From NCBI GenBank assembly GCA_035568395.1, contig DATMOF010000006.1:28393-92392 (forward strand): DNA of 64,000 nt, written 5' to 3'. The notes beneath the pieces are model-generated. The model made no database searches. It worked only from the letters and a program-made list of their open reading frames with translations, and was not told where the DNA came from. The position numbers and the translations under genes were made by a program. Source of the DNA: Mucilaginibacter sp. (GTDB lineage Bacteria > Bacteroidota > Bacteroidia > Sphingobacteriales > Sphingobacteriaceae). Positions 8,137 through 23,357 of the stretch are shown here, one piece after another (the first letter of the stretch is position 1; every line of letters starts with the position of its first letter).

Positions 8137-11100
8137 TTATACCGTTTCTTCTTCCTGAACAGCGGGTACGTGATGGCCATTTAGTTTTGCTTGTTCATGC
8201 TCGTCCCCGGCATTCAATACGGCCAAAGGAATTCCGGTTACTCTTTCCTGTAATGCCTGGAAGATGACGAATAGCACAGGGATGACAAACAATCCGAGCA
8301 ATACGCCCGAAACCATCCCGCCCGCAGCGCCGATACTGATAGAGTGGTTACCCTGTGCCGACGGCCCTGTAGCTATGCTCATCGGGAACAACCCGAAAAC
8401 AAAGGCCATGGATGTCATCAGGATGGGGCGCAGCCTAAGCCTTGCCGCCTCAATTGCGGCGGCCACCAATGGCTGCCCCGCCTTTCGCCGCTGTACGGCA
8501 AATTCCACGATCAGGATGGCATTTTTAGCCAGCAGGCCGATCAGCATGATCAGCGCCACCTGTACGTATATATTATTTTCTATCCCGGTTAAACCAAGTA
8601 CGATGAATACGCCCAAAATACCTGTGGGGATAGAGAGAATAACAGCCAAAGGCAGGATATAGCTCTCGTATTGGGCAGATAATAAGAAATAAACAAATAC
8701 CAGGCACAACAAAAATATGATGGTCGATTGCCCGCCGGATGAGATCTCCTCGCGGGTTTGGCCCGAAAATTCATACGCAAAGCCCGACGGCAATTGCTCT
8801 TTAGCTGTTTTTTGTATCGCCTTTATGGCATCGCCCGAACTATAACCCGGTTTTGGGATGGCATTGATCTCGATGGAATTAAACAGGTTGTAACGCGAGG
8901 CTGTTTCGGAACCATATACACGGGTTAGTTTCACGAGCGTATTGATGGGCACCATGGCGCCGGCTTTGTTCTTTACAAACACGCGGTCGATAGACGCCGG
9001 GTCGGTCCTATCCGCTATATCGGCCTGTACCACCACGCGGTAATATTTACCAAAGCGGTTAAAGTCCGATGCCTGGGCGCTGCCGAAATAGGCCTGCATG
9101 GTTTGCAATATATCCTTAACACTTACGCCCAATTGATTGGCTTTGTCGTCGTCAACCTCCAATTGCAGCTGTGGGTAATCCGCCTTAAACGAGGTAAATG
9201 CGTAGGCAATCGCAGGCTCAGCCATCAGCTTGCCAATAAAATTATTGGCCACGCCGCTGAATTTATCCAGCCTGCCGCCGGTTTTATCCTGCAGCACCAC
9301 ATCCAAAGCTTCCACATTGCTAAAGCCCGGAACGGTTGGGAAACTGAACACGAAGAAGCTGCCGCCGGTTATAGCCGCCAGTTTGCCCCGCATAATATTC
9401 TGTATAGCGTTAATATCTTTCACCTCCCCGCGGTCTTTATTGGGTTTCAGCAACACAAAAAACACCGCTGCCGAAGGGCTGTTTGAAGATGTCAGCAGGT
9501 TAAAGCCGGATATGGCGGTAACGAACCTGGCTGCGGGCAGCGACCGTACTTCATCCTCGGCTTGTTTCAATATTTTTGTCGTACCGTCCAGCGATGTGCC
9601 CGACGGGGTGGATACCGACACGGCAATAAAACCCTGGTCCTCCGTAGGTATAAAACCCGATTTGGTGGTTTGCACCAGGTAAATAGTAACGGCTGTTATT
9701 AAAGCAAGCCCGCCCATGCTAACCCATTTATTACGGATCAGGAACTTTAACCCGCTAACGTACCTGTTGGTGATGGCGCTAAAGCTGCTGTTAAAGCCGG
9801 CATAAAACTTTTCTTTAAATCCTTTTTTAACAATCACTTCGCCTTCTTTGGCGGGATCGCTTTTTAAGAATAAGGCCGCTAAAGCAGGACTTAATGTTAA
9901 AGCGTTAACCGCTGATATAACAATAGCAATGGCCATGGTAAAGGCAAACTGCCTGTAAAATATCCCGGTGGAACCGGTCATAAAGCCAACCGGTAAAAAC
10001 ACCGCGGCCATTACCAGGGTAATGGATATGATGGCGCCGGTAATTTCGTGCATGGCTTCTTTTGTAGCTGCCTTTGCCCCCAGGTGCTTATGCTCCATTT
10101 TGGCGTGTACCGCTTCAACCACCACAATGGCATCATCAACCACAATACCTATCGCCAGTACAAGGGCAAACAAGGTTAACAGGTTAATGGTGAAGCCAAA
10201 CAGGCTCATGAAAAAGAAGGTGCCTATTATAGCTACCGGGACCGCTATAGCGGGAATTAAGGTCGACCTGAAATCCTGCAGGAAAACAAATACCACCAGG
10301 AATACCAGTATAAAGGCTTCCAGCAGCGTATGCTCAACCTGCGTGATCGACTCGTCGAGCGCGGTTTTGGTGCGATAAAAATTGTTGAATTTAATACCTG
10401 CCGGGAAATCCTTTGATGCTTTTTCCATCAGCTTATCCACAGCGATTTGTATCTCATTAGCATTTGAACCCGCAAGTTGAATGATGCCGATTGCAATGCC
10501 GTCGTGCCCGTTTAAGTGGGTTACGCTGGTATAGGAGTAGGCCCCCAGTTCAACCCTGGCTACATCCTTCAAATGCAGCACAGAACCATCTGCATTGGCA
10601 CGTAAAGCGATGTTTTCATACTCTTCCGGCCTGGTCAGTTTACCTTTGTATTTGATAATATATTCAAATACTTCCTTGCTTCGTTCACCCAGCTTTCCCG
10701 GGGCCGCTTCCAGGTTTTTATCCTGTATCGCGGCCATAACTTCGGCAGGCGTTATCTTGTAAGCCGCCATTTGACCGGGGTTAAGCCAAACCCGCATTGA
10801 ATAGTCCTTAACACCCCCAAATATGGTAGCCGAACCCACACCGGGTATCCGCTTCAGTTCGGGAATGATATTGATCTGCGCGTAGTTGGCAACAAAGGTC
10901 TGATCGTATTTTTTGTTGTCTTCGGTATACATACCCACCGCGCCTATCAAACTGTTTTGCTGTTTTGTGGTGGTGATACCCTGCTGTACCACTTCGGCCG
11001 GCAGCTGGCTGGTTGCCTGGGCCACACGGTTTTGAACGTTCACCGCGGCCTGGTCGGGGTTGGTGCCCTGTTTAAAGTAAACAGTGATAGCCAGGGTACC

Positions 11101-11355
11101 GTCGTTGCTGGCGGTTGAGCTCATATAGCTCATGTTCTCCACACCGTTGATCGATTCTTCCAGCGAAGGCGCTACGGAACGCAGCACGGTTTCGGCATTG
11201 GCGCCGGGGTAAACTGCCGCTACCAATACCGCCGGCGGGGCGATATCAGGGAATTGCTGCAAAGGCAATTTTGTTAAACCGAGTACACCCACTATCACCA
11301 GCAATACCGAGATCACTGTTGAAAGCACCGGTCTTTCTATAAATTTTTGAAACAT
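8137..11355 (-). CDS. RND efflux permease (AcrB/HAE1 family)
   Basis: MFQKFIERPVLS start (ATG 11355 preferred over 11397); GIVVDDAIVVVE, KNAILIVEFA and RLRPILMTS motifs. Confidence 0.95.
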   Translation of the reverse strand: MFQKFIERPVLSTVISVLLVIVGVLGLTKLPLQQFPDIAPPAVLVAAVYPGANAETVLRSVAPSLEESINGVENMSYMSSTASNDGTLAITVYFKQGTNPDQAAVNVQNRVAQATSQLPAEVVQQGITTTKQQNSLIGAVGMYTEDNKKYDQTFVANYAQINIIPELKRIPGVGSATIFGGVKDYSMRVWLNPGQMAAYKITPAEVMAAIQDKNLEAAPGKLGERSKEVFEYIIKYKGKLTRPEEYENIALRANADGSVLHLKDVARVELGAYSYTSVTHLNGHDGIAIGIIQLAGSNANEIQIAVDKLMEKASKDFPAGIKFNNFYRTKTALDESITQVEHTLLEAFILVFLVVFVFLQDFRSTLIPAIAVPVAIIGTFFFMSLFGFTINLLTLFALVLAIGIVVDDAIVVVEAVHAKMEHKHLGAKAATKEAMHEITGAIISITLVMAAVFLPVGFMTGSTGIFYRQFAFTMAIAIVISAVNALTLSPALAALFLKSDPAKEGEVIVKKGFKEKFYAGFNSSFSAITNRYVSGLKFLIRNKWVSMGGLALITAVTIYLVQTTKSGFIPTEDQGFIAVSVSTPSGTSLDGTTKILKQAEDEVRSLPAARFVTAISGFNLLTSSNSPSAAVFFVLLKPNKDRGEVKDINAIQNIMRGKLAAITGGSFFVFSFPTVPGFSNVEALDVVLQDKTGGRLDKFSGVANNFIGKLMAEPAIAYAFTSFKADYPQLQLEVDDDKANQLGVSVKDILQTMQAYFGSAQASDFNRFGKYYRVVVQADIADRTDPASIDRVFVKNKAGAMVPINTLVKLTRVYGSETASRYNLFNSIEINAIPKPGYSSGDAIKAIQKTAKEQLPSGFAYEFSGQTREEISSGGQSTIIFLLCLVFVYFLLSAQYESYILPLAVILSIPTGILGVFIVLGLTGIENNIYVQVALIMLIGLLAKNAILIVEFAVQRRKAGQPLVAAAIEAARLRLRPILMTSMAFVFGLFPMSIATGPSAQGNHSISIGAAGGMVSGVLLGLFVIPVLFVIFQALQERVTGIPLAVLNAGDEHEQAKLNGHHVPAVQEEETV

Positions 11356-11371
11356 GACTTTTAGTTTTGGA

Positions 11372-11471
11372 GAGTCAGGATGAAAGTCAAGAAACAAGAC
11401 TGACCTATTGGTCTGCCTGGTGCTTAATTCCCTGGTCTTATCTTGACTCCTGGTTCTTGATTTCTTGACTC
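11372..11471. repeat. Intergenic imperfect inverted/tandem repeat element
   Basis: AGTCAAGAAA (11385-11394) is the reverse complement of TTTCTTGACT (11461-11470), with iterated TCTTGA units between them. Confidence 0.6.
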
Positions 11472-12665
11472 TTATTTGTTAATTTTTAAAACCGCAACCT
11501 TATCGGCTGCTTTTTCAGGATGGATAACTGTACCTTCCTGCAAATGGTCAATACCGCTTAGTACGAGCTGGTCGCCGGCTTTAACGCCATCCTTAACCAA
11601 GTAATTGGCGCCGCTTTTACCTATAATGGTGATCGGTACCTTTTTTACCTTGTTGCTGTCAGCAACCGTAAACACAAATACTTTATCCTGCATCTCGATC
11701 GTAGCCGACTCCGGCACGATCAATGCATCCTTGTGCGAGAGGCTCAGGCGTATCTTCCCGGTATTGCCCGATCGTAATAAACCCTGCGGGTTGTTAAAAC
11801 TGGCCCGCAATGTGATAGCCCCGGTAGTTTTATCGAACTGGCCGTCTATCATATCTATTTTCCCCTGTTTGGCATAAGCGCTGTTATCGGCGAGTAACAA
11901 TGACACAGGCGGCAATTGCCGTAATTTGTCCTTCAGGGTCGCGCCCGGATATTGCTCTTTAAAGCTTACGAAATCCTTTTCGCTTAGCGAGAAATAAACA
12001 TGCACATCGCGCACATCCGACAGCTGGGTTAACGCCTCAGCATCGGCCGGTGCAACAAGGCTGCCCTGTTTCTTCAGCAACCGGCCGATATAGCCGCTTA
12101 CCGGCGCCTTAATTAAGGTATAACCCAAATTGATCTGCGCGGTTGAAACATTGGCCCTGGCCTGTTCTATGTTCGCTTTGGCGATAGCATAAGCAGCCCT
12201 GGCTGTTTTTAACTGGTAGTCAGAAACAACCTTGTTTTGAACCAGCGGCGTCAGTTTATCGATCTCGATCTGTGCGTTTGCCGCTGCGCCCTCGGCAGCA
12301 TGCTGGCTGGCAATGGCATTGTTTAAAGCGGCGCGGTAAGGCTGTTCGTTAATTTTAAATAAAGGCTGCCCTGCATTTACAAAGGAACCTTCGTCGACAA
12401 ATACCTTATCAAGCGTGCCGCCTACCTGCGGGCGGACCTCCACGTTTACGGTACCTTCTATTGATGCAGGATATTCCTGGTAGGTTGTATCAGTACCGGT
12501 TACTATTGTTGCGACCGGCAATGATGGCGGCGGAGGAGGAGGCGGAGCCGCCGGGCTCGAGGTGCAGCTATATATCGTAATACTGATTAAAACCGCGATG
12601 ATGAACTTAACAACGTTAAACTGTTTAATATTGTTAAGTAACTGGTAAGATGAGTGCATTTGCAT
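11472..12665 (-). CDS. RND efflux periplasmic adaptor (MFP)
   Basis: VEVRPQVGG, GYTLIKAPVSGYIG and TGAITLRASF motifs; lipoprotein-like N-terminus followed by a poly-Pro linker. Confidence 0.95.
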   Translation of the reverse strand: MQMHSSYQLLNNIKQFNVVKFIIAVLISITIYSCTSSPAAPPPPPPPSLPVATIVTGTDTTYQEYPASIEGTVNVEVRPQVGGTLDKVFVDEGSFVNAGQPLFKINEQPYRAALNNAIASQHAAEGAAANAQIEIDKLTPLVQNKVVSDYQLKTARAAYAIAKANIEQARANVSTAQINLGYTLIKAPVSGYIGRLLKKQGSLVAPADAEALTQLSDVRDVHVYFSLSEKDFVSFKEQYPGATLKDKLRQLPPVSLLLADNSAYAKQGKIDMIDGQFDKTTGAITLRASFNNPQGLLRSGNTGKIRLSLSHKDALIVPESATIEMQDKVFVFTVADSNKVKKVPITIIGKSGANYLVKDGVKAGDQLVLSGIDHLQEGTVIHPEKAADKVAVLKINK

Positions 12666-12756: not shown

Positions 12757-13356
12757 TTACGCTTTTAGCGACCCGATAATGCCGCTGATAGCTGTTTTAA
12801 GTACCTCGTGAGTGATCTCCTCAGAAGTGCGGCGACGGACTACGTTTATGGAGATCAATCCATGTATAACCGACCAGAACGTATAATATTTAACGCTCAC
12901 ATCGTCTTCGGTCGGCTTATCCGGAGCCATGATCTCTTCGATCACTCCGGCAACCAGATCATACGGAATATCGGCCTCCGGCAACTTTGCCGATAATTCG
13001 CAACAGCTAATGTTTAAACCAAACATTACCTGGTACAGTTCCTTTTCGGCAAACGCAAAGTTCCAGTAGGCCAGCCACATGGCTTCCAGCTGTTTTTCGG
13101 GTGAACGGTGTTTTTCTTTTGCCGCCTTCATATCCCGGGCAAGGATCAAAAATCCTTTTCTTGTCAGCTCAAGCAGTATCGCTTCCTTGTTTGAAAAGTA
13201 CTCGTATATAATAGGTGCGGTGTACTCGATGGCATCGGCTATCTTGCGCATGCTCAATGCGGGCCATCCCTCCTCCTTCACAATCTGCAGGGAAGCATCC
13301 AGGATGTTTATCCTGGTCTCCTCTTTCAATCGTAATATCCTGTCTTTACTTGCCAT
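12757..13356 (-). CDS. TetR/AcrR family regulator
   Basis: HTH LSMRKIADAIEYTAPIIYEYFSNKEAIL; C-terminal WHG-type WSVIHG. Confidence 0.95.
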   Translation of the reverse strand: MASKDRILRLKEETRINILDASLQIVKEEGWPALSMRKIADAIEYTAPIIYEYFSNKEAILLELTRKGFLILARDMKAAKEKHRSPEKQLEAMWLAYWNFAFAEKELYQVMFGLNISCCELSAKLPEADIPYDLVAGVIEEIMAPDKPTEDDVSVKYYTFWSVIHGLISINVVRRRTSEEITHEVLKTAISGIIGSLKA

Positions 13357-13392: not shown

Positions 13393-13541
13393 GCAAAAGT
13401 ATATTCTTTTTTTAAATCGATTGACATTATTTTGTCACAATATCATTTTTTACGACACTATAAAAATTAAATAAAAAAAACTGGCCAAGTAAAAATAAAG
13501 TATTTGTTGTAGATTTGGTGTAACAACTTTGTTATAATTGA

Positions 13542-14144
13542 ATGATGGCCGATCACAGTCCTGCTGTAAAAAAAGACGAGGACACATTAAGCAGAATCTA
13601 TTCCGGAGATAAAAGCTCTTTTGAGAAATTTTATAAACAATATTATAAAAGGTCATATATAGTAGCCTATCAATACACAAAACACCACGAGCAATCCGAA
13701 GAAATTGTTCATGATGTGTTTCTCAAAATTTGGAATAACGCTTCAACTCTACGAATAGTACATTCGCTTGACAGCTATTTATACCGGTCGGTCGTAAATG
13801 CTTCATTAAATTACATCAAAAAAGAAAAGAATAAAGCCGAAAAACACGACAAGTTCAGCCAGGATTTTGACGAGTTTGAAATGATGGATGAAGGTGCAGA
13901 AACACTGGAAAAGCGGCTTCTGCAGATAGAGCACGCATTAGAGAAACTTCCCCCTCAATGCAAAAAGGTAATGATGATGAGTAAGTTTGACAAATACAAA
14001 CAACAGGAGATTGCCGACTCATTGAACATCTCTGTTAAAACGGTAAAAAATCACCTCACCTATGGATATAAAAAATTAAAGGATTTTCTTGTTGACAAGA
14101 AGGCGTTTTTTTGGATCTTATTTATAGGACTTTTTAAATTTTAG
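13542..14144 (+). CDS. ECF RNA polymerase sigma-70 factor
   Basis: Region 2 EEIVHDVFLKIW; region 4 LPPQCKKV...EIADSLNISVKTVKNHL. Confidence 0.95.
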   Translation: MMADHSPAVKKDEDTLSRIYSGDKSSFEKFYKQYYKRSYIVAYQYTKHHEQSEEIVHDVFLKIWNNASTLRIVHSLDSYLYRSVVNASLNYIKKEKNKAEKHDKFSQDFDEFEMMDEGAETLEKRLLQIEHALEKLPPQCKKVMMMSKFDKYKQQEIADSLNISVKTVKNHLTYGYKKLKDFLVDKKAFFWILFIGLFKF

Positions 14145-14149
14145 TTGTC
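14125..14149 (+). promoter_or_regulatory. Putative ECF promoter, copy 1 (fecR)
   Basis: TAGGAC-N15-TGTC, overlapping the sigma 3' end, 27 nt before the fecR ATG. Confidence 0.7.
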
Positions 14150-14176
14150 TGATAAAAATATACCCGGCTAATAATC

Positions 14177-15205
14177 ATGATAAAGAACGAATTTAGTATT
14201 CCTCCATACGAACTGATCATTAGAAGTTTTGAGGAGCCGCTTTCGGCGGATGAACAGAAGCTACTGGCTTCATGGAGGGCCATATCGGCCACCAATGAGG
14301 ATCTGTATCAGCAGCTCAATTTGATCAGTGCCGACATTGAGCTGTTGCCGGTTTACCAAAGGTTAAATCCGGATGTTTCGTGGAATAAATTCAGCCTTTT
14401 GCTTGAAAAGCATCACGAGCCCGTTAATATTGTGGAATTGAATGCAAAGCCCGCAGGCAGTTTCATTAAAAAATTAAGTTGGGTTTTGCCCATCGCTGCA
14501 TCCCTCTTATTGGTTACCTGGTTCACTATCAATCAAAACCGTAATAATACTATCAATACCGTTACGCTGGTACGGTCGGGGTTACACCAGCATAAAAAAA
14601 TTGTATTAACAGACGGAACAGAAGTATTATTGAATGAAAACACGAGGGTTTCTTACAATAAATACAGTTACAATCAAAACAGGAAGATTGATTTATTGGA
14701 AGGAGAAGCGTTTTTTACTGTTGTTCACAATGCTGCAAGGCCCTTTAAAGTAAACATCGATAAAATTGTTGTTAAGGATATTGGGACAAGCTTCAATATT
14801 AGAAAAGAACAGCACGCAGTTGTCGTCGTTGTGAATTCAGGTATTGTTTCGTTAATAAACCAGGCGAACGGAAGTAATGTGCTGCTTAGAGCCAAACAAA
14901 AAGGAATTTATGATATGGCTTTAGATAATATTACATGGAGAGCCAACGAAGAAATAAATTACAAAGCCTGGGCGGATAAAAATTTGGAATTTATTAAGGC
15001 GCCGCTACAAGATGTGGTACGGGAATTAAAAGATACGTATGGCGCTGATATATATATTGAAGATAATGCCCTAAACAATAAAATATTGACTGCATCATTT
15101 AGAAATCAGCCCATCGATAGTGTATTAAATTTTATCGGCATGACGCTCCATATTAAAATAGAAAAAAGAGATAATACGTTTTATTTAAAAAAAGATTTAT
15201 TATAG
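14177..15205 (+). CDS. FecR family anti-sigma factor
   Basis: Single TM (WVLPIAASLLLVTWF); LTDGTEVLLNENT, LLEGEAFF and IGTSFNI motifs. Confidence 0.93.
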   Translation: MIKNEFSIPPYELIIRSFEEPLSADEQKLLASWRAISATNEDLYQQLNLISADIELLPVYQRLNPDVSWNKFSLLLEKHHEPVNIVELNAKPAGSFIKKLSWVLPIAASLLLVTWFTINQNRNNTINTVTLVRSGLHQHKKIVLTDGTEVLLNENTRVSYNKYSYNQNRKIDLLEGEAFFTVVHNAARPFKVNIDKIVVKDIGTSFNIRKEQHAVVVVVNSGIVSLINQANGSNVLLRAKQKGIYDMALDNITWRANEEINYKAWADKNLEFIKAPLQDVVRELKDTYGADIYIEDNALNNKILTASFRNQPIDSVLNFIGMTLHIKIEKRDNTFYLKKDLL

Positions 15206-15218
15206 CATACGGGCAATC

Positions 15219-17792
15219 ATGTTGTATGTTCAAGGATGCCCGCGTCTTTCAATAAAAAGAAAGAAATTATCATGTTTTTTTATTTTGCTGCTATTGAGCA
15301 TTTGTTCTCTGAAAGCCCAAACGAAAAGGATTACCATTGATTTTGAGAATTGTTACCTGGAGACGGCACTCACAAAGCTTATAACCGATTTAAACGTTCC
15401 GCTTTCATTTAATCCTGCATTATTGCCTATTGATAAAAAGATCAATAAAAAATTTACAGATGCTACTGTAAATGAAATTCTAGACTATTTATTGTCGGAA
15501 ACTGAATTGTTCTATAAGGTTTCAAACAATGAATTTATAATTATAAAAGATAAAAATAAACCCATTGTTTTAAGCGGGCATTTTAAGGACTTGGAAACCA
15601 GGGAAGACATCATCGGTGCATCTTTGTACACGCCAGAACTTAATAAAGGTGTTTCTACGAATAATTACGGGTATTACGCTCTGGCCATTCCAAAGGGTAA
15701 TTATACTTTTTTGATCTCTCATATCGGGTATAAAAAGAAAACCATATTTCTGTCGTTAAAGAATTCTAAGATAGTTGATATAATGCTCGAAAAGCAAACA
15801 GATACGCTGAAAGAAGTAACGATCCAGTCGCCCGATGGCTACAGCGATACACTTTTATCGGGTATCCCCGGAAAATCGTTATCCACAACTTTTATTCAAA
15901 AACATCCTGCATTAGGTGGCGAAGCGGACATCATTAAGATAGTAAGAATGCAAAGCGGCGTTGTGGGGGGTACCGAAGGGAGCAATAGTTTGTTTATAAG
16001 AGGGGGCGGTAACGACCAAAATTTAATATTGATGGATGAAGCACCCATATATAATCCCGCTCATTTATTTGGATTGGTTTCTATTTTCAACCAGGATGCT
16101 GTAAGTAATGTGCAACTATATAAAGATGAGATGCCGGCCAATTTTGGTGGGCGATTGTCGTCTATAGTAGATGTTAGCATGCTTGAAGGAAATAAACAAA
16201 GCTTTCATATCAAAGGAGGTGCAAGTTTTTTATCTGCCCGGCTTGCTGTTGAGGGGCCTTTAAAACGCGACCGGGGTTCATTTTTGTTAACTTTTAGACG
16301 AGGCCTTACTGATTTTATAAACAATAACTTTCAATTATTTAATTTGAAAGCCACTTACTACGATCTTAATGCCAAATTCAATTACACCATTGATGCGAAT
16401 AACAGGGTGTTCCTTTCTGTCTATTATGGTGTCGATCATCTATTATCCAGTAATGCGTATAGAAATAGCTGGGGAAACAAAACAACAACCCTAAGATGGA
16501 ACCACCTGTTCAATTCGCGGGTGTTCTCCAATTTATCTGCCATCTACAGCAACTATAATAATCAGCTTAATATTGATGCCTCGAAAGCAGATAGAAGATT
16601 TAATTGGATAACCGGTATTGAAGATTTTACGTTAAAGGAAGATTTTACTTTTTATTATAAGCCCGAAAGTAATATTAAATTGGGTTTCAATGGAACTCTT
16701 CACAAGTTTATTCCGGGTGAATCGCCCGATAGGGCCCGGGATTCTATACCTGTAAATAATTTAAGGGTAAATGCGCTCGACCTGGCGGTTTACATCAGTC
16801 ACAATCTTTTTATCGGAACTAAATTCCAGGCAAACTACGGCCTTCGCGCCAACATGTTTAAAAACACTCCGGAGGATAAACTGTTTCAAAATACGAACAA
16901 TCAAAATAGCAATGGGCAAAACAGTTCAAATGGTTCCGCAGTAACTTTTGTAAATTTTGAACCAAGATTGTTTTTACAATTTAAATTGAACAAAACTCAA
17001 CAAGTACATGCGGCCTATAACCGCAATTATCAATACATCCAATTGGTACAGGATAATGAATTATCCTTTTCATCTTTAGAAACATGGATCCCTTCAAGCA
17101 CCTATATTGCCCCCCAAAAAGCCGACATTTTTTCTCTCGGCTACAAAGTCAGATTCAACAATCTTACAATGTCAGCCGATGGATATTATAAAAAATTGTC
17201 CAATCAGCTGGATTTAATAGATCATGCGCAAATCATTTTAAACCATAGTGTCGAGCACCAGCTTCGCGTTGGTAAATCGGATGCATATGGTACCGAAATT
17301 AATATTATAAAAAACTGGAACAAATTCAATGGCATCCTTGGCTATTCATACACGAGGGTATATAAGCAAATAGCCGGCATTAATAATAATAACCCCTATC
17401 CGCCGGACTACGACGTTCCGCACAACTTTAAGTTAAGTTCATCCTACCAGTTTACCTCCAGGTTGTCCTTAAATTCTTTTTTTATCTATCGGACAGGCAA
17501 GCCGGTAACACTTCCTGTTGGTTATTACACAGAAGGCGGGCGTATGATCCCTATTTTCGAAGACCGCAATTCGTCCCGCTTCAGCGATTACAACCGGCTT
17601 GATCTTAGCCTGGAATTAAAACCATCAGTCATAAAAAACAACAATCGGCACTGGCAAAGTACCTGGCTATTTGCAATTTACAATGTTTATAATAAGAAAA
17701 ACCCATTATTTTATATCATCGATAAGACGTCATCCGCAAATAATATAGGTTCGGGTATTGTTCCAAGTATTACTTACAATTTTAAATTTTAA
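15219..17792 (+). CDS. TonB-dependent receptor with N-terminal signalling (STN-like) extension
   Basis: Plug motifs IRGGGNDQNLILMD and PANFGGRLSSIVD; C-terminal YNFKF. Confidence 0.9.
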   Translation: MLYVQGCPRLSIKRKKLSCFFILLLLSICSLKAQTKRITIDFENCYLETALTKLITDLNVPLSFNPALLPIDKKINKKFTDATVNEILDYLLSETELFYKVSNNEFIIIKDKNKPIVLSGHFKDLETREDIIGASLYTPELNKGVSTNNYGYYALAIPKGNYTFLISHIGYKKKTIFLSLKNSKIVDIMLEKQTDTLKEVTIQSPDGYSDTLLSGIPGKSLSTTFIQKHPALGGEADIIKIVRMQSGVVGGTEGSNSLFIRGGGNDQNLILMDEAPIYNPAHLFGLVSIFNQDAVSNVQLYKDEMPANFGGRLSSIVDVSMLEGNKQSFHIKGGASFLSARLAVEGPLKRDRGSFLLTFRRGLTDFINNNFQLFNLKATYYDLNAKFNYTIDANNRVFLSVYYGVDHLLSSNAYRNSWGNKTTTLRWNHLFNSRVFSNLSAIYSNYNNQLNIDASKADRRFNWITGIEDFTLKEDFTFYYKPESNIKLGFNGTLHKFIPGESPDRARDSIPVNNLRVNALDLAVYISHNLFIGTKFQANYGLRANMFKNTPEDKLFQNTNNQNSNGQNSSNGSAVTFVNFEPRLFLQFKLNKTQQVHAAYNRNYQYIQLVQDNELSFSSLETWIPSSTYIAPQKADIFSLGYKVRFNNLTMSADGYYKKLSNQLDLIDHAQIILNHSVEHQLRVGKSDAYGTEINIIKNWNKFNGILGYSYTRVYKQIAGINNNNPYPPDYDVPHNFKLSSSYQFTSRLSLNSFFIYRTGKPVTLPVGYYTEGGRMIPIFEDRNSSRFSDYNRLDLSLELKPSVIKNNNRHWQSTWLFAIYNVYNKKNPLFYIIDKTSSANNIGSGIVPSITYNFKF

Positions 17793-18637
17793 TGCATCAT
17801 ATAAGAATTTATTGCTGTATTGCATTAAGCAACCTGCTTTTGACGCTAAGCTGCAAGAATTATGTTGTTACGCCACAATTTAAGCATAACAATAAAACTT
17901 ACGATATCGCGGTTGAGGGTGGGATAAATACATTTCAAACCACGCAATTTATCAGGCTGTCAAAACCGGCAATATTACCCAATAAAGACGTAGAACCAGT
18001 TAGTCAGGCTATTGTAAGCATTAGCGATGGAATTAATAAAGTATTTCTCAGGGAAACAAGTACGCCCGGAATATACACGGGCACCATCAATAACAACACA
18101 AATTACGACCGTCCATATACCTTGAATGTAACTTATGGCAAATCAGATTATGCTGCCACCGATACTTTGCGACGGGTGCCGGAGATTAATGTTAATGATT
18201 TGCCGTTTACCGCAAAAAAACTGGTTGACGGAAAAATTCAGCTAAAAATACCGAGACATATATTTGGCACATCATTTTCAGCGCGGTGGCTTATCACATC
18301 CCCTGGAAAAGAACGATGGAGCCCCGCCAGTTTAAACAAAAAGCTGGATTATAACTATTCTCATCAATATGGCTCGCCAAACACGTTATACCCAAGCACA
18401 CAAAAGATCAGCACGCGCACTTTGAATCCGGGGGATACAGTTACCGTTTACAAGTTTTCGCTGTCTGCATCTTATAGCAAATATCTGTATACTGTTTTTC
18501 AGGAAACGGATTTTAAAAACATATTCTCGTCGGTACCCGGCAAAATATATGGCAACGTTTCCAATAACGCCCTCGGTTATTTTTATTGTACCGATGTTAA
18601 GGTAAAACGCTATCTCGCCCGGGATCTGGTAAGATAA
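17792..18637 (+). CDS. DUF4249-like lipoprotein
   Basis: Lipobox LTLSC; IAVEGGI start; GNVSNNALGYF end; translationally coupled to the TBDR. Confidence 0.75.
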   Translation: MHHIRIYCCIALSNLLLTLSCKNYVVTPQFKHNNKTYDIAVEGGINTFQTTQFIRLSKPAILPNKDVEPVSQAIVSISDGINKVFLRETSTPGIYTGTINNNTNYDRPYTLNVTYGKSDYAATDTLRRVPEINVNDLPFTAKKLVDGKIQLKIPRHIFGTSFSARWLITSPGKERWSPASLNKKLDYNYSHQYGSPNTLYPSTQKISTRTLNPGDTVTVYKFSLSASYSKYLYTVFQETDFKNIFSSVPGKIYGNVSNNALGYFYCTDVKVKRYLARDLVR

Positions 18638-18902
18638 TTCCTGCTGTTCCTTTCCGGCTGCTTTTCCCTTCTTTTCCAGGGGTTATATAGGACTTTTGGA
18701 TCAATTAATTGTTTCCTGTTAAAGAGAATAACCATTAATTATTCACAATGATTTTAGGAATGCTTATTTACCTGATCAGGACGCTTTCAAAAATGCTAAA
18801 CGAAAAGTAGGGCTACCTCGCTTCTTGCCTAATCCGGCAAAACTAATTTTCTGATTTTAGTCCGTCACCCAGGCCAGGTTCAAAAGTTATTGCTCATCAA
18901 TA

Positions 18903-18927
18903 TAGGACTTTTAACACATCCTATGTC
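18903..18927 (+). promoter_or_regulatory. Putative ECF promoter, copy 2
   Basis: TAGGAC-N15-TGTC, 40 nt before ATG 18968. Confidence 0.7.
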
Positions 18928-18967
18928 TTTAATGTAATTAACTGTTTATCTATTTAAAACAAAGAAA

Positions 18968-19693
18968 ATGAAAAACACATCTTTAAAAACCAGCGCGCTT
19001 TTACTAATGGTATTAGTTCTTTCCATAGTTTCCTGCGCAAAGAAAAATGGAGTTACTCCGAAAAAAAAATTATCCTATCAATTTAAGGTAACCGGCGCCT
19101 CGGCCGCTTTAGTTGCCGGTACGCAAAACTCAACCCTTACTACAACGGCCACCACAGGCGCAAACATTACCTGGCAGTCGGGATATGCTAACGTAGCATC
19201 CATTTCTTTTGAGGGAAAGAACCAGGATAACAAACAAAGCCACGAAGATTTTATTGAATCTGCCGTTTATAAGCTTGATTTATTTGGCACTACCCAATTG
19301 ATAGGCAAAGTAGATTTAGCCGTTGGAACCTACCGCAATGTTGATTTCAAAATAGAGCTTAAGCAAACGGCATCAGGCGCAGCCTTGTTCCTGAAAGGTG
19401 TTTATGCATCGGCAAAAGGAAATATCCCGGTAGAGCTTTCTTTAAATGAAGGCAATGACAATATGGAAATAAAAGCCATAGCTAAAGATTTAACAGTTGG
19501 CGCAAAAGACAGCTACATCGCATATATTAACCTTCATTTGGATAAATTAATCGTCGGTGTTAAATCCGCTGATCTGGATGCAGCTACATTAACCGGTGGC
19601 ACTATAGTTATCAGCAGCACTTCTAATGTTGCCATTTATACAAAAATCAAGGCTACACTTGGCAATTGCTCAGATGGTGACTATAACAATTGA
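18968..19693 (+). CDS. Hypothetical lipoprotein (paralogue 1)
   Basis: Lipobox SIVSC; clearly similar to 19984-20733. Confidence 0.85.
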   Translation: MKNTSLKTSALLLMVLVLSIVSCAKKNGVTPKKKLSYQFKVTGASAALVAGTQNSTLTTTATTGANITWQSGYANVASISFEGKNQDNKQSHEDFIESAVYKLDLFGTTQLIGKVDLAVGTYRNVDFKIELKQTASGAALFLKGVYASAKGNIPVELSLNEGNDNMEIKAIAKDLTVGAKDSYIAYINLHLDKLIVGVKSADLDAATLTGGTIVISSTSNVAIYTKIKATLGNCSDGDYNN

Positions 19694-19891
19694 AATTACT
19701 ATATGACCCTTTAACTACTATGGATTACCTATAAAAACGAGAATAGGGAACAATTATGTAAATAGTTCGTTCCCTTTCTTTTTCTTTTGAAGTATTATCT
19801 GTAATATAAGAAAATGTCCTTTCCACGGCATCTATCCATCCGGCGAGGGCAGCTACCTGGCAATCCTTTAAAAAATAAATTTACATTGATA

Positions 19892-19916
19892 TAGGCCTTT
19901 TTTATTAAAAATTGTC
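19892..19916 (+). promoter_or_regulatory. Putative ECF promoter, copy 3
   Basis: TAGGCC-N15-TGTC, upstream of ATG 19984. Confidence 0.65.
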
Positions 19917-19983
19917 TTGAATATATGAATATAAATGTGGATTATATCAGGAAATACAAAATGTATAATTAAAACTAAAAAAT

Positions 19984-20733
19984 ATGAAAGCTCAAGTATT
20001 AAAAATCGGTGTATTGCTAATGCTGCTTGCTGTTATAATTTCTTGTTCAAAAAAAAACACGCCTGCACCAGTATCTAATAAAAAATTATCGTACCAATTT
20101 AAGGTGCTCAATGCTAATGTAGCGCTTAGTTCCAGTACTCCTGGTTCAAACACTACAGCATTAGGGACAGGTAGTATAAACTGGCAATCTGGTTTCGCTA
20201 ATATTTTATCTATTTCGTTTATTGGCAATAACATAGATAATAATGTCAATCCAAACGATACCACTATCGATACAAATGACTCTTTTGTAGAGCCATCCAT
20301 CTATAAAGTTGATTTATTTGGAAGCAACCAACTTTTAGGAAACGTAGATATTGCTAAAGGCACTTATCATGACGCGGAAATTAAAGTGGAACTCAAATCA
20401 TCCGCAACAGAGCCGGCACTTTATTTAAAAGGTGTGTATGCCTCGGCAAATGGAAACGTGCCAATTGAACTCTCTTTAAGTGAAGGCGGAGAGCAAATGG
20501 AAGTTATAGCTACAGCTAAAAACTTAACAGTTAGCTCAAAAGACAGTTACGTTGCGTTCATAAACATGCACTTAGATAAATTGATGGCCGGCGTGACAAC
20601 CGGCGATTTGGATGCGGCTACGCTTAGCAACGGATCAATTTTAATAGACCAAAGTAACAACACGTCAATCTACGACAAAATAATGGCCAATATCAACGGT
20701 TTTTCTGATGGGGATTATAATGCCGATAATTAA
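19984..20733 (+). CDS. Hypothetical lipoprotein (paralogue 2)
   Basis: Lipobox IISC; shares KKLSYQFKV, LKGVYASA, HLDKL and DGDYN with 18968-19693. Confidence 0.85.
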   Translation: MKAQVLKIGVLLMLLAVIISCSKKNTPAPVSNKKLSYQFKVLNANVALSSSTPGSNTTALGTGSINWQSGFANILSISFIGNNIDNNVNPNDTTIDTNDSFVEPSIYKVDLFGSNQLLGNVDIAKGTYHDAEIKVELKSSATEPALYLKGVYASANGNVPIELSLSEGGEQMEVIATAKNLTVSSKDSYVAFINMHLDKLMAGVTTGDLDAATLSNGSILIDQSNNTSIYDKIMANINGFSDGDYNADN

Positions 20734-20770
20734 GAGCGGCTGCTAAGTCAAGTCGTAATAAAACCATGAG

Positions 20771-20800
20771 AACCACTGGCAGACCCGGTGGTTTCTTTTT
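20771..20800 (+). terminator. Rho-independent terminator
   Basis: AACCACTGG-loop-CCGGTGGTT followed by a T-run. Confidence 0.7.
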
Positions 20801-20835
20801 TTGCCTGTAAGTTCAATAAATTTTACCGGTTGTTC

Positions 20836-20861
20836 TAGGACTTTTTTAAATATCCCTTGTC
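20836..20861 (+). promoter_or_regulatory. Putative ECF promoter, copy 4
   Basis: TAGGAC-N16-TGTC, 42 nt before ATG 20904. Confidence 0.65.
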
Positions 20862-20903
20862 ATTAATGTGAATTAACGTTTCGCCAGGGAAAACATTTCT
20901 ATT

Positions 20904-21155
20904 ATGAACAAGAACATTACCTATAAATTGAAAAGAACTGATGGAACAGAATGCCTGGTTCATATCATTTCTATAAAATATTTGAAGGAAAACCATAAAG
21001 CATTCTTTCTGATCGATGTGGGCGAAGATAGAGAACTGGGGTATTTAATTTTCGATGAGCAAAATGATTGGCGATTTAACGGGTTCCTCGAGTCAAATGA
21101 ACAAACACAGATTTCAAATTTTATACTGGAAAGCTATAATGTCCCGCTGCATTAG
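20904..21155 (+). CDS. Small hypothetical protein (83 aa)
   Basis: ORF with an AT-rich upstream region and its own copy of the ECF motif. Confidence 0.7.
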   Translation: MNKNITYKLKRTDGTECLVHIISIKYLKENHKAFFLIDVGEDRELGYLIFDEQNDWRFNGFLESNEQTQISNFILESYNVPLH

Positions 21156-21248
21156 CGGATAAAGAACTATAATATCACAGGGAAAGTGACTAAAAGGGAC
21201 TGATCTCTATAATGATAATATTTCAAAAACAGCCTGGTTGCTGCGCTG

Positions 21249-23114
21249 CTATAGGCCTAAATTCTCAGTCAAATAACTTTCTAAAACTACAAGCTGCCAG
21301 ATATGATTCCATTTGACACCATTTTTATTTCGCAGAAAATCGTCCCATAAACTGGTGATCTCTCTTTCTGAAAATTGCTCCCTTTTTCCCAACAGGCTAA
21401 GATGCATTTCGCAAAAGTCTCTCAATTCATTTTGCAGCCAATAAACCCATGGAAAGGTAAAACCCATTTTAGGGCGATGAACGATCTCGTTCGGCAATAA
21501 TGGATATAATGCCTCAACAAGCAGGCTCTTAGGGAAAATCGGGTATTTAATTTGATCGGGGACTTGTAAAACAAACTCCACCAGGTTATAATCTAAAAAA
21601 GGCTCCCTTATTTCTAATGAATTTGCCATACCCATCTGGTCAGTATCTTTTAATAATACATTTTGGGTATAGCAAAGCAACTCAGCAACCGAATATTGGC
21701 TTAAAACGGGCAATTTACTGATCCCGGTTTTTCTGTCAGCCAATATTTCCTGCACTACATTACCACCCGGGTGCTGGCTTTTCAGAATCTTGCTAACACC
21801 GGATATAGAGTGGTTCTGCCTTAAAAAGGGATATTGATGCTCAATATTTAAATTCTCAGCCTTTAACATCCCTGCGAAACGCTCGCCTTTTGCCCCACGC
21901 AAAAAGCGATTTGCAACTGCCCCGACGGATTGCCGCATAAACTCTGGTGTAAACCTTAATAATGGATGATTTTTAATTTTATAGAATAATTTAAACTTAT
22001 CATAACCTGCGAAAAGTTCATCTCCCCCTATCCCGGAAAGCGCGACTGAAACACCCGCATTTTTTGTTGCTTTGGCAATGATGTACGTATTGATCGCATC
22101 GCCGCTTGGCGTATCCATTGCCCTGAGCGCGTTTGGCAATTCTTTTAAAAAATCGTCCGCAGTCAGGTTGACCTGGGTATGGTTTGTGTTAAATTTCTTT
22201 GCAATTAATTTAGCGTAGCGTGACTCATCAAACGCCTGTTCATTAAAAGCCACCGAAAAAGTGTGGATGGGTTTATCTGTAACTTCCGACATTAACCCCA
22301 CGATGGCACTTGAATCTATTCCCCCGGATAAGAAAGCGCCTAATTCAACATCGCTTATCATCCTTCGTTCCACAGATTCCGTTAACAGCCGCCTGATCTC
22401 TTTTTTTACCTGGAAAGGGCTATCCATATCTTGAAAAGTTCTCTCTTTTTCAATGTTCCAATAATAGTTTTTTGTTAAGGTATTGTCTTTAAAAACCGCG
22501 TATTGACCCGGCATTAATTGATGTATTTCTTTAAATAAGGTATTTGGGGCAGTAACTGATAAATTCATCAGGTAATCTGCCAGCGAATGATCGTCGATCT
22601 CTAATTGAACTAAACCCGATGCATTTATAGCTCTTATCTCCGATGCAAAAACGAATCGGTCGTGAAGATGATAATAATATAAAGGCTTGACCCCTAACCT
22701 GTCACGTGCTATAAACAATTGTCTTTCCTGGTTGTCCCATATAGCAAAAGCAAACATGCCATTTAAACGCTCAAGGCATTTAGAGCCCCACTTAATAAAA
22801 GCGGCCAGGACAACTTCTGTGTCGGAATTGGTTTGAAAATCATAATCAACCAATTGTGATTTTACTTCCCGGAAATTATAAATTTCACCATTAAATAATA
22901 AAACATATCGTTTTTGGGAATCTGTAAAAGGCTGATTGGCTTTGTCATTCAGATCAATAATGGCTAATCGTGTATTACCTAAGGCTACCTTTTCATTTAA
23001 ATAAAATCCGTCAGAATCGGGGCCGCGGTGAATAAGCCTGGCCGCCATTTTTACTATTTTATTTTTTAGTACACTTTGATTAAAAGGCCCAATTATTCCG
23101 GATATTCCGCACAT
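21249..23114 (-). CDS. asnB: Asparagine synthase (glutamine-hydrolysing) family amidotransferase
   Basis: N-terminal MCGISG (Ntn Cys); HRGPD, LSGGIDSS, SGIGGDELFAGY, EPFLD and RPKMGF motifs. Confidence 0.93.
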   Translation of the reverse strand: MCGISGIIGPFNQSVLKNKIVKMAARLIHRGPDSDGFYLNEKVALGNTRLAIIDLNDKANQPFTDSQKRYVLLFNGEIYNFREVKSQLVDYDFQTNSDTEVVLAAFIKWGSKCLERLNGMFAFAIWDNQERQLFIARDRLGVKPLYYYHLHDRFVFASEIRAINASGLVQLEIDDHSLADYLMNLSVTAPNTLFKEIHQLMPGQYAVFKDNTLTKNYYWNIEKERTFQDMDSPFQVKKEIRRLLTESVERRMISDVELGAFLSGGIDSSAIVGLMSEVTDKPIHTFSVAFNEQAFDESRYAKLIAKKFNTNHTQVNLTADDFLKELPNALRAMDTPSGDAINTYIIAKATKNAGVSVALSGIGGDELFAGYDKFKLFYKIKNHPLLRFTPEFMRQSVGAVANRFLRGAKGERFAGMLKAENLNIEHQYPFLRQNHSISGVSKILKSQHPGGNVVQEILADRKTGISKLPVLSQYSVAELLCYTQNVLLKDTDQMGMANSLEIREPFLDYNLVEFVLQVPDQIKYPIFPKSLLVEALYPLLPNEIVHRPKMGFTFPWVYWLQNELRDFCEMHLSLLGKREQFSEREITSLWDDFLRNKNGVKWNHIWQLVVLESYLTENLGL

Positions 23115-23169
23115 TGTTTTTTATTTTTGCGTGTCATAATTCCTGATGAAATTATGTTTGATGGTTAAT

Positions 23170-23195
23170 GACAATGTGGTTGTAGAATAGTCCTA
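23170..23195 (-). promoter_or_regulatory. Putative ECF promoter, copy 5 (asnB)
   Basis: Minus-strand TAGGAC-N16-TGTC, 55 nt before the asnB ATG. Confidence 0.65.
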
Positions 23196-23357
23196 TATCT
23201 TCTTTTTCATGTCTGTTTTATTTTTTATTTTTCAGTTCAGCAGGACGCAATAATTGATTTATTAAGATGTAGGGATAGCTTAGGAAAGGCATAAATGCAA
23301 AAAGCCTCACTTCTCAGTAAGGCTATTGTTTTATAGACAGGTCGAACCCCGCCTCTG

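Follow-up and report, generated by a model that had tools for sequence, protein, structure and literature searches.

A predicted local ECF sigma-factor regulon marked by a conserved bipartite motif in a Mucilaginibacter cell-surface-signalling module

We analyzed a 64,000-nucleotide stretch of a Mucilaginibacter genome, hereafter the window (C6:28393-92392 in an assembly of 4.07 Mb and 14 contigs), in which a bipartite motif, TAGG(A/C)C-N15/16-TGTC, recurs upstream of genes grouped around an extracytoplasmic function (ECF) sigma factor. The sigma gene (13542-14144, plus strand) encodes a 200-residue protein with sigma-70 regions 2 and 4 only (Pfam Sigma70_r2 and Sigma70_r4_2), which passes the NCBIfam cut-off of the TIGR02985 Sig70_bacteroi1 subfamily (146.4 bits versus 126.4). 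Thirty-three nucleotides (nt) after its stop codon begins fecR (14177-15205, plus strand), encoding a 342-residue FecR-type anti-sigma factor (Pfam FecR, 72.4 bits; FecR_C, 48.4 bits). It is followed by the gene for an 857-residue TonB-dependent transducer (15219-17792, plus strand), in which Pfam finds a weak STN match, a CarboxypepD_reg-like domain, a plug and a barrel, and by the gene for a DUF4249 lipoprotein (17792-18637, plus strand), which may form a lid on the transducer. A lid role of DUF4249 proteins in non-SusC TonB-dependent transporters has been put forward (bioRxiv 10.1101/2023.03.17.533168). The layout of sigma factor, FecR and TonB transducer is that of a cell-surface-signalling system.

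Five further genes complete the block. A small open reading frame (ORF) of 20 codons (18748-18810, plus strand; translation MILGMLIYLIRTLSKMLNEK) precedes lipoA (18968-19693, plus strand), which encodes a 241-residue lipoprotein that reaches the cut-off of no Pfam or NCBIfam family; its sole Pfam match, aBig_2, scores 16.7 bits against a cut-off of 27. The AlphaFold2 model of this lipoprotein is all-beta with a predicted local distance difference test score of 78, and a fold comparison with the PDB gave no match at E ≤ 0.001 and a top TM-score of 0.26. Its paralogue lipoB (19984-20733, plus strand; 249 residues, ~55% identity) is followed by a gene for an 83-residue cytoplasmic orphan protein (20904-21155, plus strand) that matches no Pfam or NCBIfam family and whose homologues amount to one cluster among 1.8 billion representatives, plus a 101-residue protein in L093, a Mucilaginibacter metagenome-assembled genome. 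On the opposite strand lies asnB (21249-23114, minus strand), which encodes a 621-residue glutamine-dependent amidotransferase of the asparagine-synthase family (Pfam, TIGR01536); we regard it as accessory because a second asnB (35% identity) is present elsewhere in the genome. No Rfam family was found between positions 13000 and 24000 of the window.

An earlier note on this DNA had listed five full motif copies and one weaker copy, and all six are present at the positions and on the strands that it gave. On the plus strand, copy 1 (TAGGAC-N15-TGTC, 14125-14149) precedes the fecR-transducer-DUF4249 genes, and further full copies precede lipoA (18903-18927), lipoB (19892-19916, a TAGGCC variant) and the 83-residue gene (20836-20861); on the minus strand, a copy of the TAGGACTATT variant (23170-23195) precedes asnB. 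The weak copy, TAGGAC-N16-TGTT (18688-18713, plus strand), stands before the small ORF. The gaps from TGTC or TGTT to the start codon are, in order along the window, 27, 34 (small ORF), 40, 67, 42 and 55 nt, so that the five full copies span the 27-67 nt that the note had reported. Spacers and flanks of these copies are unrelated to one another in sequence. A terminator-like hairpin (GGGAAC...GTTCCC) with a T-run follows lipoA (19746-19788, plus strand); it was read by eye, and the terminator scan does not include it because its loop exceeds 8 nt. The same scan placed an intrinsic-terminator-like hairpin with a T-run after lipoB (20770-20804, plus strand). With such a hairpin behind each of them, lipoA and lipoB would form separate units, each needing its own promoter.

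Clustering of the motif far exceeds chance. In 100 shuffles of the window that preserved its dinucleotides, the pattern never reached the six matches observed, its expected count being 0.22 per 64 kb. Within the 9-kb block, where ~0.03 matches are expected by chance, five copies correspond to a Poisson P(≥5) of ~2 × 10⁻¹⁰. The genome-wide scan that had been proposed as a check returned eight exact matches in 4.07 Mb, five of them inside the block, compared with 22 for a reversed-pattern control. When the base after the hexamer is fixed as T (TAGGMCT-N14/15-TGTC), five matches are left in the genome and 5/5 lie in the block.

A matrix trained on the window's own sites would be circular, and we replaced our first matrix, which was of this kind, with one trained on 26 sites from other genomes, leaving out both the window and L093. 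Run over the whole assembly (~8 million positions), this independent matrix gave its five highest scores, 29.3-33.8 bits, to the full sites and its sixth, 22.3 bits, to the weak copy; copy 1 was the best match genome-wide at 33.8 bits, and the asnB copy reached 32.3 bits. The next match scored 21.3 bits (C11:89698), and all remaining ones ≤18.3 bits.

The matches outside the block deserve separate mention. The window holds a sixth exact match at 28318-28293 (minus strand), contrary to the earlier impression that no full copy lies outside the block. The gene behind it lies within a glycoside-hydrolase cluster and encodes a secreted beta-helix protein, with a plausible ATG ~22 nt from the match. 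We rejected this site (TAGGCCCCG...TGTC) as a member of the regulon, as it lacks the T-tract present at all 39 compiled sites (see below) and falls below threshold in both matrix scans; it is probably a chance match. An exact match at C5:303509 was likewise discarded as a promoter, since it sits between two genes on the other strand. The site at C11:89698, ATATAGGACTATTTT-N-CGGTCTTTA, lies outside the window ~70 nt upstream of a gene for a 142-residue secreted protein and scores close to the weak copy, so that it might belong to the regulon as a distal member. Overall, the exact pattern is rarer outside the block than in the controls (3 matches versus 22 for the reversed pattern and ~14 expected from the window shuffles), which may reflect the usual rarity of TAG-containing words or avoidance of spurious promoters.

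We then compared the block with related loci. Transducer orthologues occur in 3/229 genomes of the genus, namely G207 (74% identity) and G196 and G139 (both 51%); a scan of genome contigs with the transducer yielded only distant paralogues (29-37% identity) and was dropped as a source of orthologues. Seven further loci carry orthologues of the block or of its sigma factor: L093 (85.7% nucleotide identity over window positions 13500-23207), the metagenomic loci L087 and L088 (sigma 66% and 59% identical to that of the window), L089 (46%), L090 from Pedobacter suwonensis (CP031708, 50%), L091 from a Daejeonella metagenome-assembled genome (50%) and L092 (48%). In all ten of these loci, which cover Mucilaginibacter, Pedobacter and Daejeonella, the motif lies beside a sigma orthologue (46-92% identity), upstream of fecR and of neighbor genes, and copy 1 is kept at the sigma-fecR junction. 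Genomes of the genus that lack the orthologue hold 0-1 matches to TAGGACT...YGTC and no clusters.

A compilation of 39 such sites gave the extended motif taTAGGACTTTT-N11/12-tTGTC(a/t)t, in which TAGGAC and TGTC are separated by 16 nt at 28 sites and by 15 nt at the other 11. All 39 sites are oriented towards a gene. Position +6, directly after TAGGAC, is T in 39/39 sites, a base that most of the search patterns did not require, and the following TTT, required by none of them, is found in 32-37 of the 39. In G196 and G139 the copies carry CGTC as their -10 element. Individual promoters can also be followed between genomes: the TAGGACTATT form precedes asnB in L087, L093 and G207 as well, the equivalent of the lipoB promoter reads TAGGTC in L093 and TAGGCC in G207, and that of the promoter before the 83-residue gene is TAGGTC-N16-TGTC in L093. 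In the alignment with L093, which also covers the lipoA promoter, motif blocks are still recognizable at places where the intergenic DNA around them has diverged too far to be aligned; the hairpin after lipoA is kept too, and the sequence beyond it is not alignable.

Colinearity with L093 spans 13500 to 23207, its right end falling 12 nt past the -35 element of asnB. To the left, the window has a TetR-associated efflux cluster of the resistance-nodulation-division (RND) type, whereas L093 has a motif-driven operon of GT87, GT2, deacetylase and Wza genes. With these bounds and the differing left flank, the regulon behaves as a discrete module.

The copy at 18688 had been described as a weaker one. 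Its -10 element is indeed weaker, but the copy is not a spare one, as it precedes a small ORF that is conserved in five genomes. Homologous ORFs of 20-26 codons follow motif copies in G207 (after two copies), G196, G139 and L093. Compared with L093, the ORF shows two synonymous changes, one stop-to-stop change and two conservative replacements; compared with G207, it shows three synonymous changes, with the stop at the same codon. This substitution pattern fits a translated small peptide. TGTT replaces TGTC in three genomes (the window, L093 and G207), and with the weak form kept in all three, the weakness of this -10 before the small ORF looks deliberate.

Copy 1 overlaps the sigma gene itself. 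As had been noted, it is encoded within the last codons, with ATA GGA CTT TTT AAA TTT TAG translating as I-G-L-F-K-F-stop and TGTC starting 2 nt past the stop. In the ten loci, the -35 hexamer keeps the same position with respect to fecR and is constant apart from the variants TAGTAC and TGGGAC. Its reading within the sigma gene differs: it is translated as I-G-L (or I-V-L, M-G-L) in the window, L093, L087, L088, L089, G207, G196 and G139, and as (N/Y)-R-T-F in L091 and L092, while in L090 its TAG is the sigma stop codon. Counted from where the hexamer starts, the sigma stop lies 0, 10, 14, 17 or 26 nt downstream, depending on the locus. Because the -35 DNA stays the same whichever of the three codon phases reads it, conservation acts at the level of DNA rather than of peptide, and the last 0-9 residues of the sigma factor can be regarded as translated promoter. 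At this end of the gene, protein-coding and regulatory information share the same DNA, a natural case of overlapping code in a compact form.

The proposal that the FIGLFKF tail is constrained by the promoter therefore applies to these last residues and does not extend to the hydrophobic core ahead of them. The codons of the hydrophobic C-terminal tail, AFFWILFIGLFKF, occupy 14103-14141 (plus strand). Among 118 homologues (45-92% identical), 113 have a polar linker and then 10-15 hydrophobic residues ahead of the promoter-overlapping end, a tail common to ~96% of this Sphingobacteriales sigma clade. T makes up 52% of the 36 nt that precede the junction copies, compared with 38% for 25 non-coding promoter copies; the promoter therefore does not demand so T-rich a composition. 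Selection on the protein thus seems to account for the hydrophobic core. In the AlphaFold2 model the tail prolongs the last helix at low confidence, and it might act as a membrane-association or anti-sigma-docking helix that holds the sigma factor at the inner membrane beside FecR. A joint reading would make the tail functional, with its end sharing code with the sigma factor's own target promoter, and would combine it with the sigma-dependent 20-residue hydrophobic peptide into an undescribed variant of surface signalling that controls envelope remodelling; we offer this as a tentative idea, less likely right than wrong.

We conclude that the block is best read as a cell-surface-signalling module whose sigma factor would fire six local units. 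That the motif is a -35/-10 promoter recognized by the adjacent ECF sigma factor (13542-14144) is in our estimate very probable, and the explanation as a whole, in which this sigma factor reads the motif, FecR and the transducer control it and six units respond, we hold with similarly high confidence. In the proposed mechanism, the FecR-type anti-sigma factor would hold the sigma factor inactive until a predicted inducing ligand, bound by the TonB-dependent transducer with its DUF4249 lid, signals through FecR and frees it. This path from ligand through FecR to sigma release is proposed from the domain architecture and from the analogy with FecIRA-type and Bacteroides systems. The freed sigma factor would then fire the six transcription units of the 9.7-kb module (13500-23207), with transcription starts predicted from the motif copies: fecR-transducer-DUF4249, the 20-residue ORF with its weak -10 TGTT, lipoA, lipoB, the 83-residue gene and, on the other strand, asnB. 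Firing of the first unit would constitute feedback on the system's own sensor.

The sigma gene itself would probably be transcribed from a housekeeping-type promoter. A candidate housekeeping (sigma-A type) -7 box, TAGATTTG, lies upstream of it (13510-13517, plus strand); it is a pattern match. Among six intergenic regions examined for TAnnTTTG, no other has one, with 0/5 motif-bearing intergenic regions containing this Bacteroidota -7 box. No copy of the ECF motif was found upstream of the sigma gene in the region examined in this genome, whereas L088 and L090 have one ~120-130 nt before the sigma start. The earlier note had taken the motif to define both the sigma promoter and a regulon on two strands; the cross-validated comparison upholds the local two-strand regulon, while autoregulation of the sigma gene through the motif falls away with the missing upstream copy.

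The strongest alternative is that the motif is a genuine ECF-type promoter read by another sigma factor elsewhere in the genome, the adjacent one being merely linked. The genome has ~11 ECF-like sigma matches by tblastn and four FecR systems, and other sigma-fecR junctions carry related motifs such as TTAGGGGCTT-N13-CGTCAT, which makes cross-talk conceivable. Those junction motifs, however, differ at conserved positions, and the TAGGAC-type motif tracks the sigma orthologues in ten loci of three genera and is gone from genomes of the genus that lack them. A paralogous clade of sigma, FecR and STN-bearing TonB-dependent transducer genes that is widespread in the genus (sigma 29% and transducer 36% identical to those of the window) has a different conserved element, CACTAAGGGTATC-N13-TGACTATATG, ~55 nt upstream of fecR (L044-L064, L094, L095), likely the promoter of another ECF clade. 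With the motif accompanying the sigma orthologues and a different element in the paralogous clade, motif and sigma clade travel together, and we regard a reader elsewhere in the genome as unlikely. The paralogous clade was set aside for comparison of sigma-fecR junctions, as its motif lies ~700 nt downstream of the 29%-identical sigma gene.

The motif could instead be the operator of a DNA-binding activator or repressor. Contact with the sigma factor is a prediction, and a TetR-family gene adjoins the module; this neighbor is, however, absent from orthologous loci that keep the motif. An operator would also have to account for a motif that is asymmetric and bipartite, with a 15/16-nt spacer, and that points strictly towards the downstream gene at promoter distance from its start codon, in intergenic regions with no alternative promoter consensus. 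We consider this explanation improbable. That the repeats are non-functional, left by chance or by local duplication, is very improbable: lipoA and lipoB are ~55% identical paralogues whose upstream regions could share ancestry, but the copies have unrelated spacers and flanks, no homology links fecR, the 83-residue gene and asnB, and chance (~0.03 copies per block) explains neither the recovery of exactly these sites by the independent matrix nor their conservation across genera.

Several points weigh against assigning the motif to the adjacent sigma factor and against the signalling chain built on it. The link between motif and sigma factor is one of co-occurrence. The -35 (AGGAC) and -10 (TGTC) elements deviate from the textbook GGAAC and CGTC, although G196 and G139 do use CGTC. 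The 39 compiled sites were picked by pattern, so that their core positions are partly circular. Finally, the STN match of the window transducer (residues 62-110) scores 17.6 bits, below the Pfam cut-off of 28.4. In the Pfam lists of the orthologous transducers, STN appears unmarked in L090 and L092, as weak in L087 and as faint in L088 and L089, and is missing from L091; the ~110 N-terminal residues of the transducer are absent from non-signalling paralogues.

The genes behind the motif in related loci bear on what the module might do. Homologues of lipoA follow the motif in L087, L088, L093 and G207, and asnB does so in L087 and L093, with a remnant in G207. In this remnant (L073; G207:C622, 2337-2910), an internal deletion has left the equivalents of residues ~17-61 and 509-621, and the upstream motif is intact. 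The GT87-GT2-deacetylase-Wza operon stands behind the motif in L093 and its first gene also in G207, where a GT4 gene is a further target. A fasciclin lipoprotein gene follows the motif in G196 and G139, and fatty-acid hydroxylase, DUF2147 and PMT_2 genes in L089. In L091 and L092, the motif precedes a second pair of TonB-dependent transducer and DUF4249 genes, a DUF2147 gene, and a gene for a VTT (DedA-type) domain protein or a fatty-acid hydroxylase; in L090, it precedes a DUF6134 gene, an OEP-MFP-RND efflux operon and a gene for an MprF-like synthase. These accessory members suggest remodelling of the envelope or of surface polysaccharide rather than simple nutrient uptake. Lists of lipoproteins, an amidotransferase, glycosyltransferases, MprF- and ArnT-like enzymes, efflux components and a small peptide would thus have the sigma clade control the cell envelope and surface, not nutrient import.

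Known systems offer points of comparison. The FecI-FecR-FecA system of Escherichia coli and related Pseudomonas systems consist of an ECF sigma factor, a FecR-type anti-sigma factor and a TonB-dependent outer-membrane transducer. As in FecI-FecR-FecA, the transducer gene of the window is placed under the predicted target promoter and the sigma gene is not. Unlike in that system, the predicted induced operon includes the anti-sigma gene, the last codons of the sigma gene run into the promoter, a CarboxypepD_reg-like domain and a putative DUF4249 lid belong to the transducer, the sigma factor has a hydrophobic C-terminal tail, and the predicted regulon comprises five further local transcription units and no iron-uptake genes.

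The second comparison is with the ECF sigma, anti-sigma and SusC-like regulators of polysaccharide utilisation loci in Bacteroides (PMC3878776). They share with the module the phylum, the TIGR02985 sigma type, a FecR-family anti-sigma factor with a TonB-dependent protein, and local control; the module differs in having no SusC/SusD pair, no glycoside hydrolases in its regulon and a readable motif. For the Bacteroides ECF systems no promoter motif has been defined (PMC3878776, PMC7366714), nor is one known in B. thetaiotaomicron (PMC7366714), and prediction of ECF promoters has been called challenging and in need of transcription-start data (PMC3878776). Promoter motifs of Bacteroidota ECF sigma factors being almost undefined, the cross-validated motif described here would connect a single sigma clade with target genes across several genera, and the regulon can be read from sequence and tested with a few reporter fusions.

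Within ECF classification 2.0, the module resembles the FecI-like groups ECF239-ECF243, especially ECF240 (former ECF10), in combining a Bacteroidota FecI-like sigma factor with a FecR-like anti-sigma factor and TonB-dependent receptor neighbors (PMC7826278). According to the same paper, no member of ECF240 has been studied experimentally; group-specific promoter logos are placed in the supplements, where the present motif may already be drawn. The sigma tail recalls ECF238 and ECF29, in which region 4.2 is likewise followed by a short conserved extension. In those groups the extension takes the place of an anti-sigma factor and either is rich in cysteine or bears an RCE/D motif (PMC7826278), whereas the present tail is purely hydrophobic, comprises 10-15 residues and occurs beside FecR. 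In a further difference from ECF238 and ECF29, its end overlaps the predicted target promoter of the sigma factor itself.

Other ECF-like elements came to light during the comparison. Homologues of lipoA in 60 relatives were rejected as orthologous loci, since they are stand-alone genes with no sigma gene nearby and a different ECF-like motif upstream. In Mucilaginibacter loci L010-L027 (27-38% identity), such stand-alone homologues are preceded by GG(C/T)(A/T)AC(C)-N15/16-CGT(A/T), and in the twelve extended loci checked no sigma gene was found within ~14 kb. The lipoA lipoprotein family thus seems to be ECF-controlled in general.

To the left of the module, on the minus strand, the window encodes a TetR regulator (12757-13356), a HlyD-type membrane-fusion protein (11472-12665) and an AcrB-type pump (8137-11397), the latter two of RND efflux type. 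The gene at 12757-13356 does not encode a second sigma factor. A perfect inverted repeat, TGACA-N6-TGTCA (13422-13437), lies between the divergent TetR and sigma genes and is a plausible operator of the TetR protein for the TetR-MFP-AcrB efflux operon. Elsewhere in the same genome, another sigma-FecR-SusC-like system (C2:1189500-1196500, minus strand) carries the TTAGGGGCTT-N13-CGTCAT element in its sigma-fecR junction, and a promoter between sigma and fecR may be common in these bacteria.

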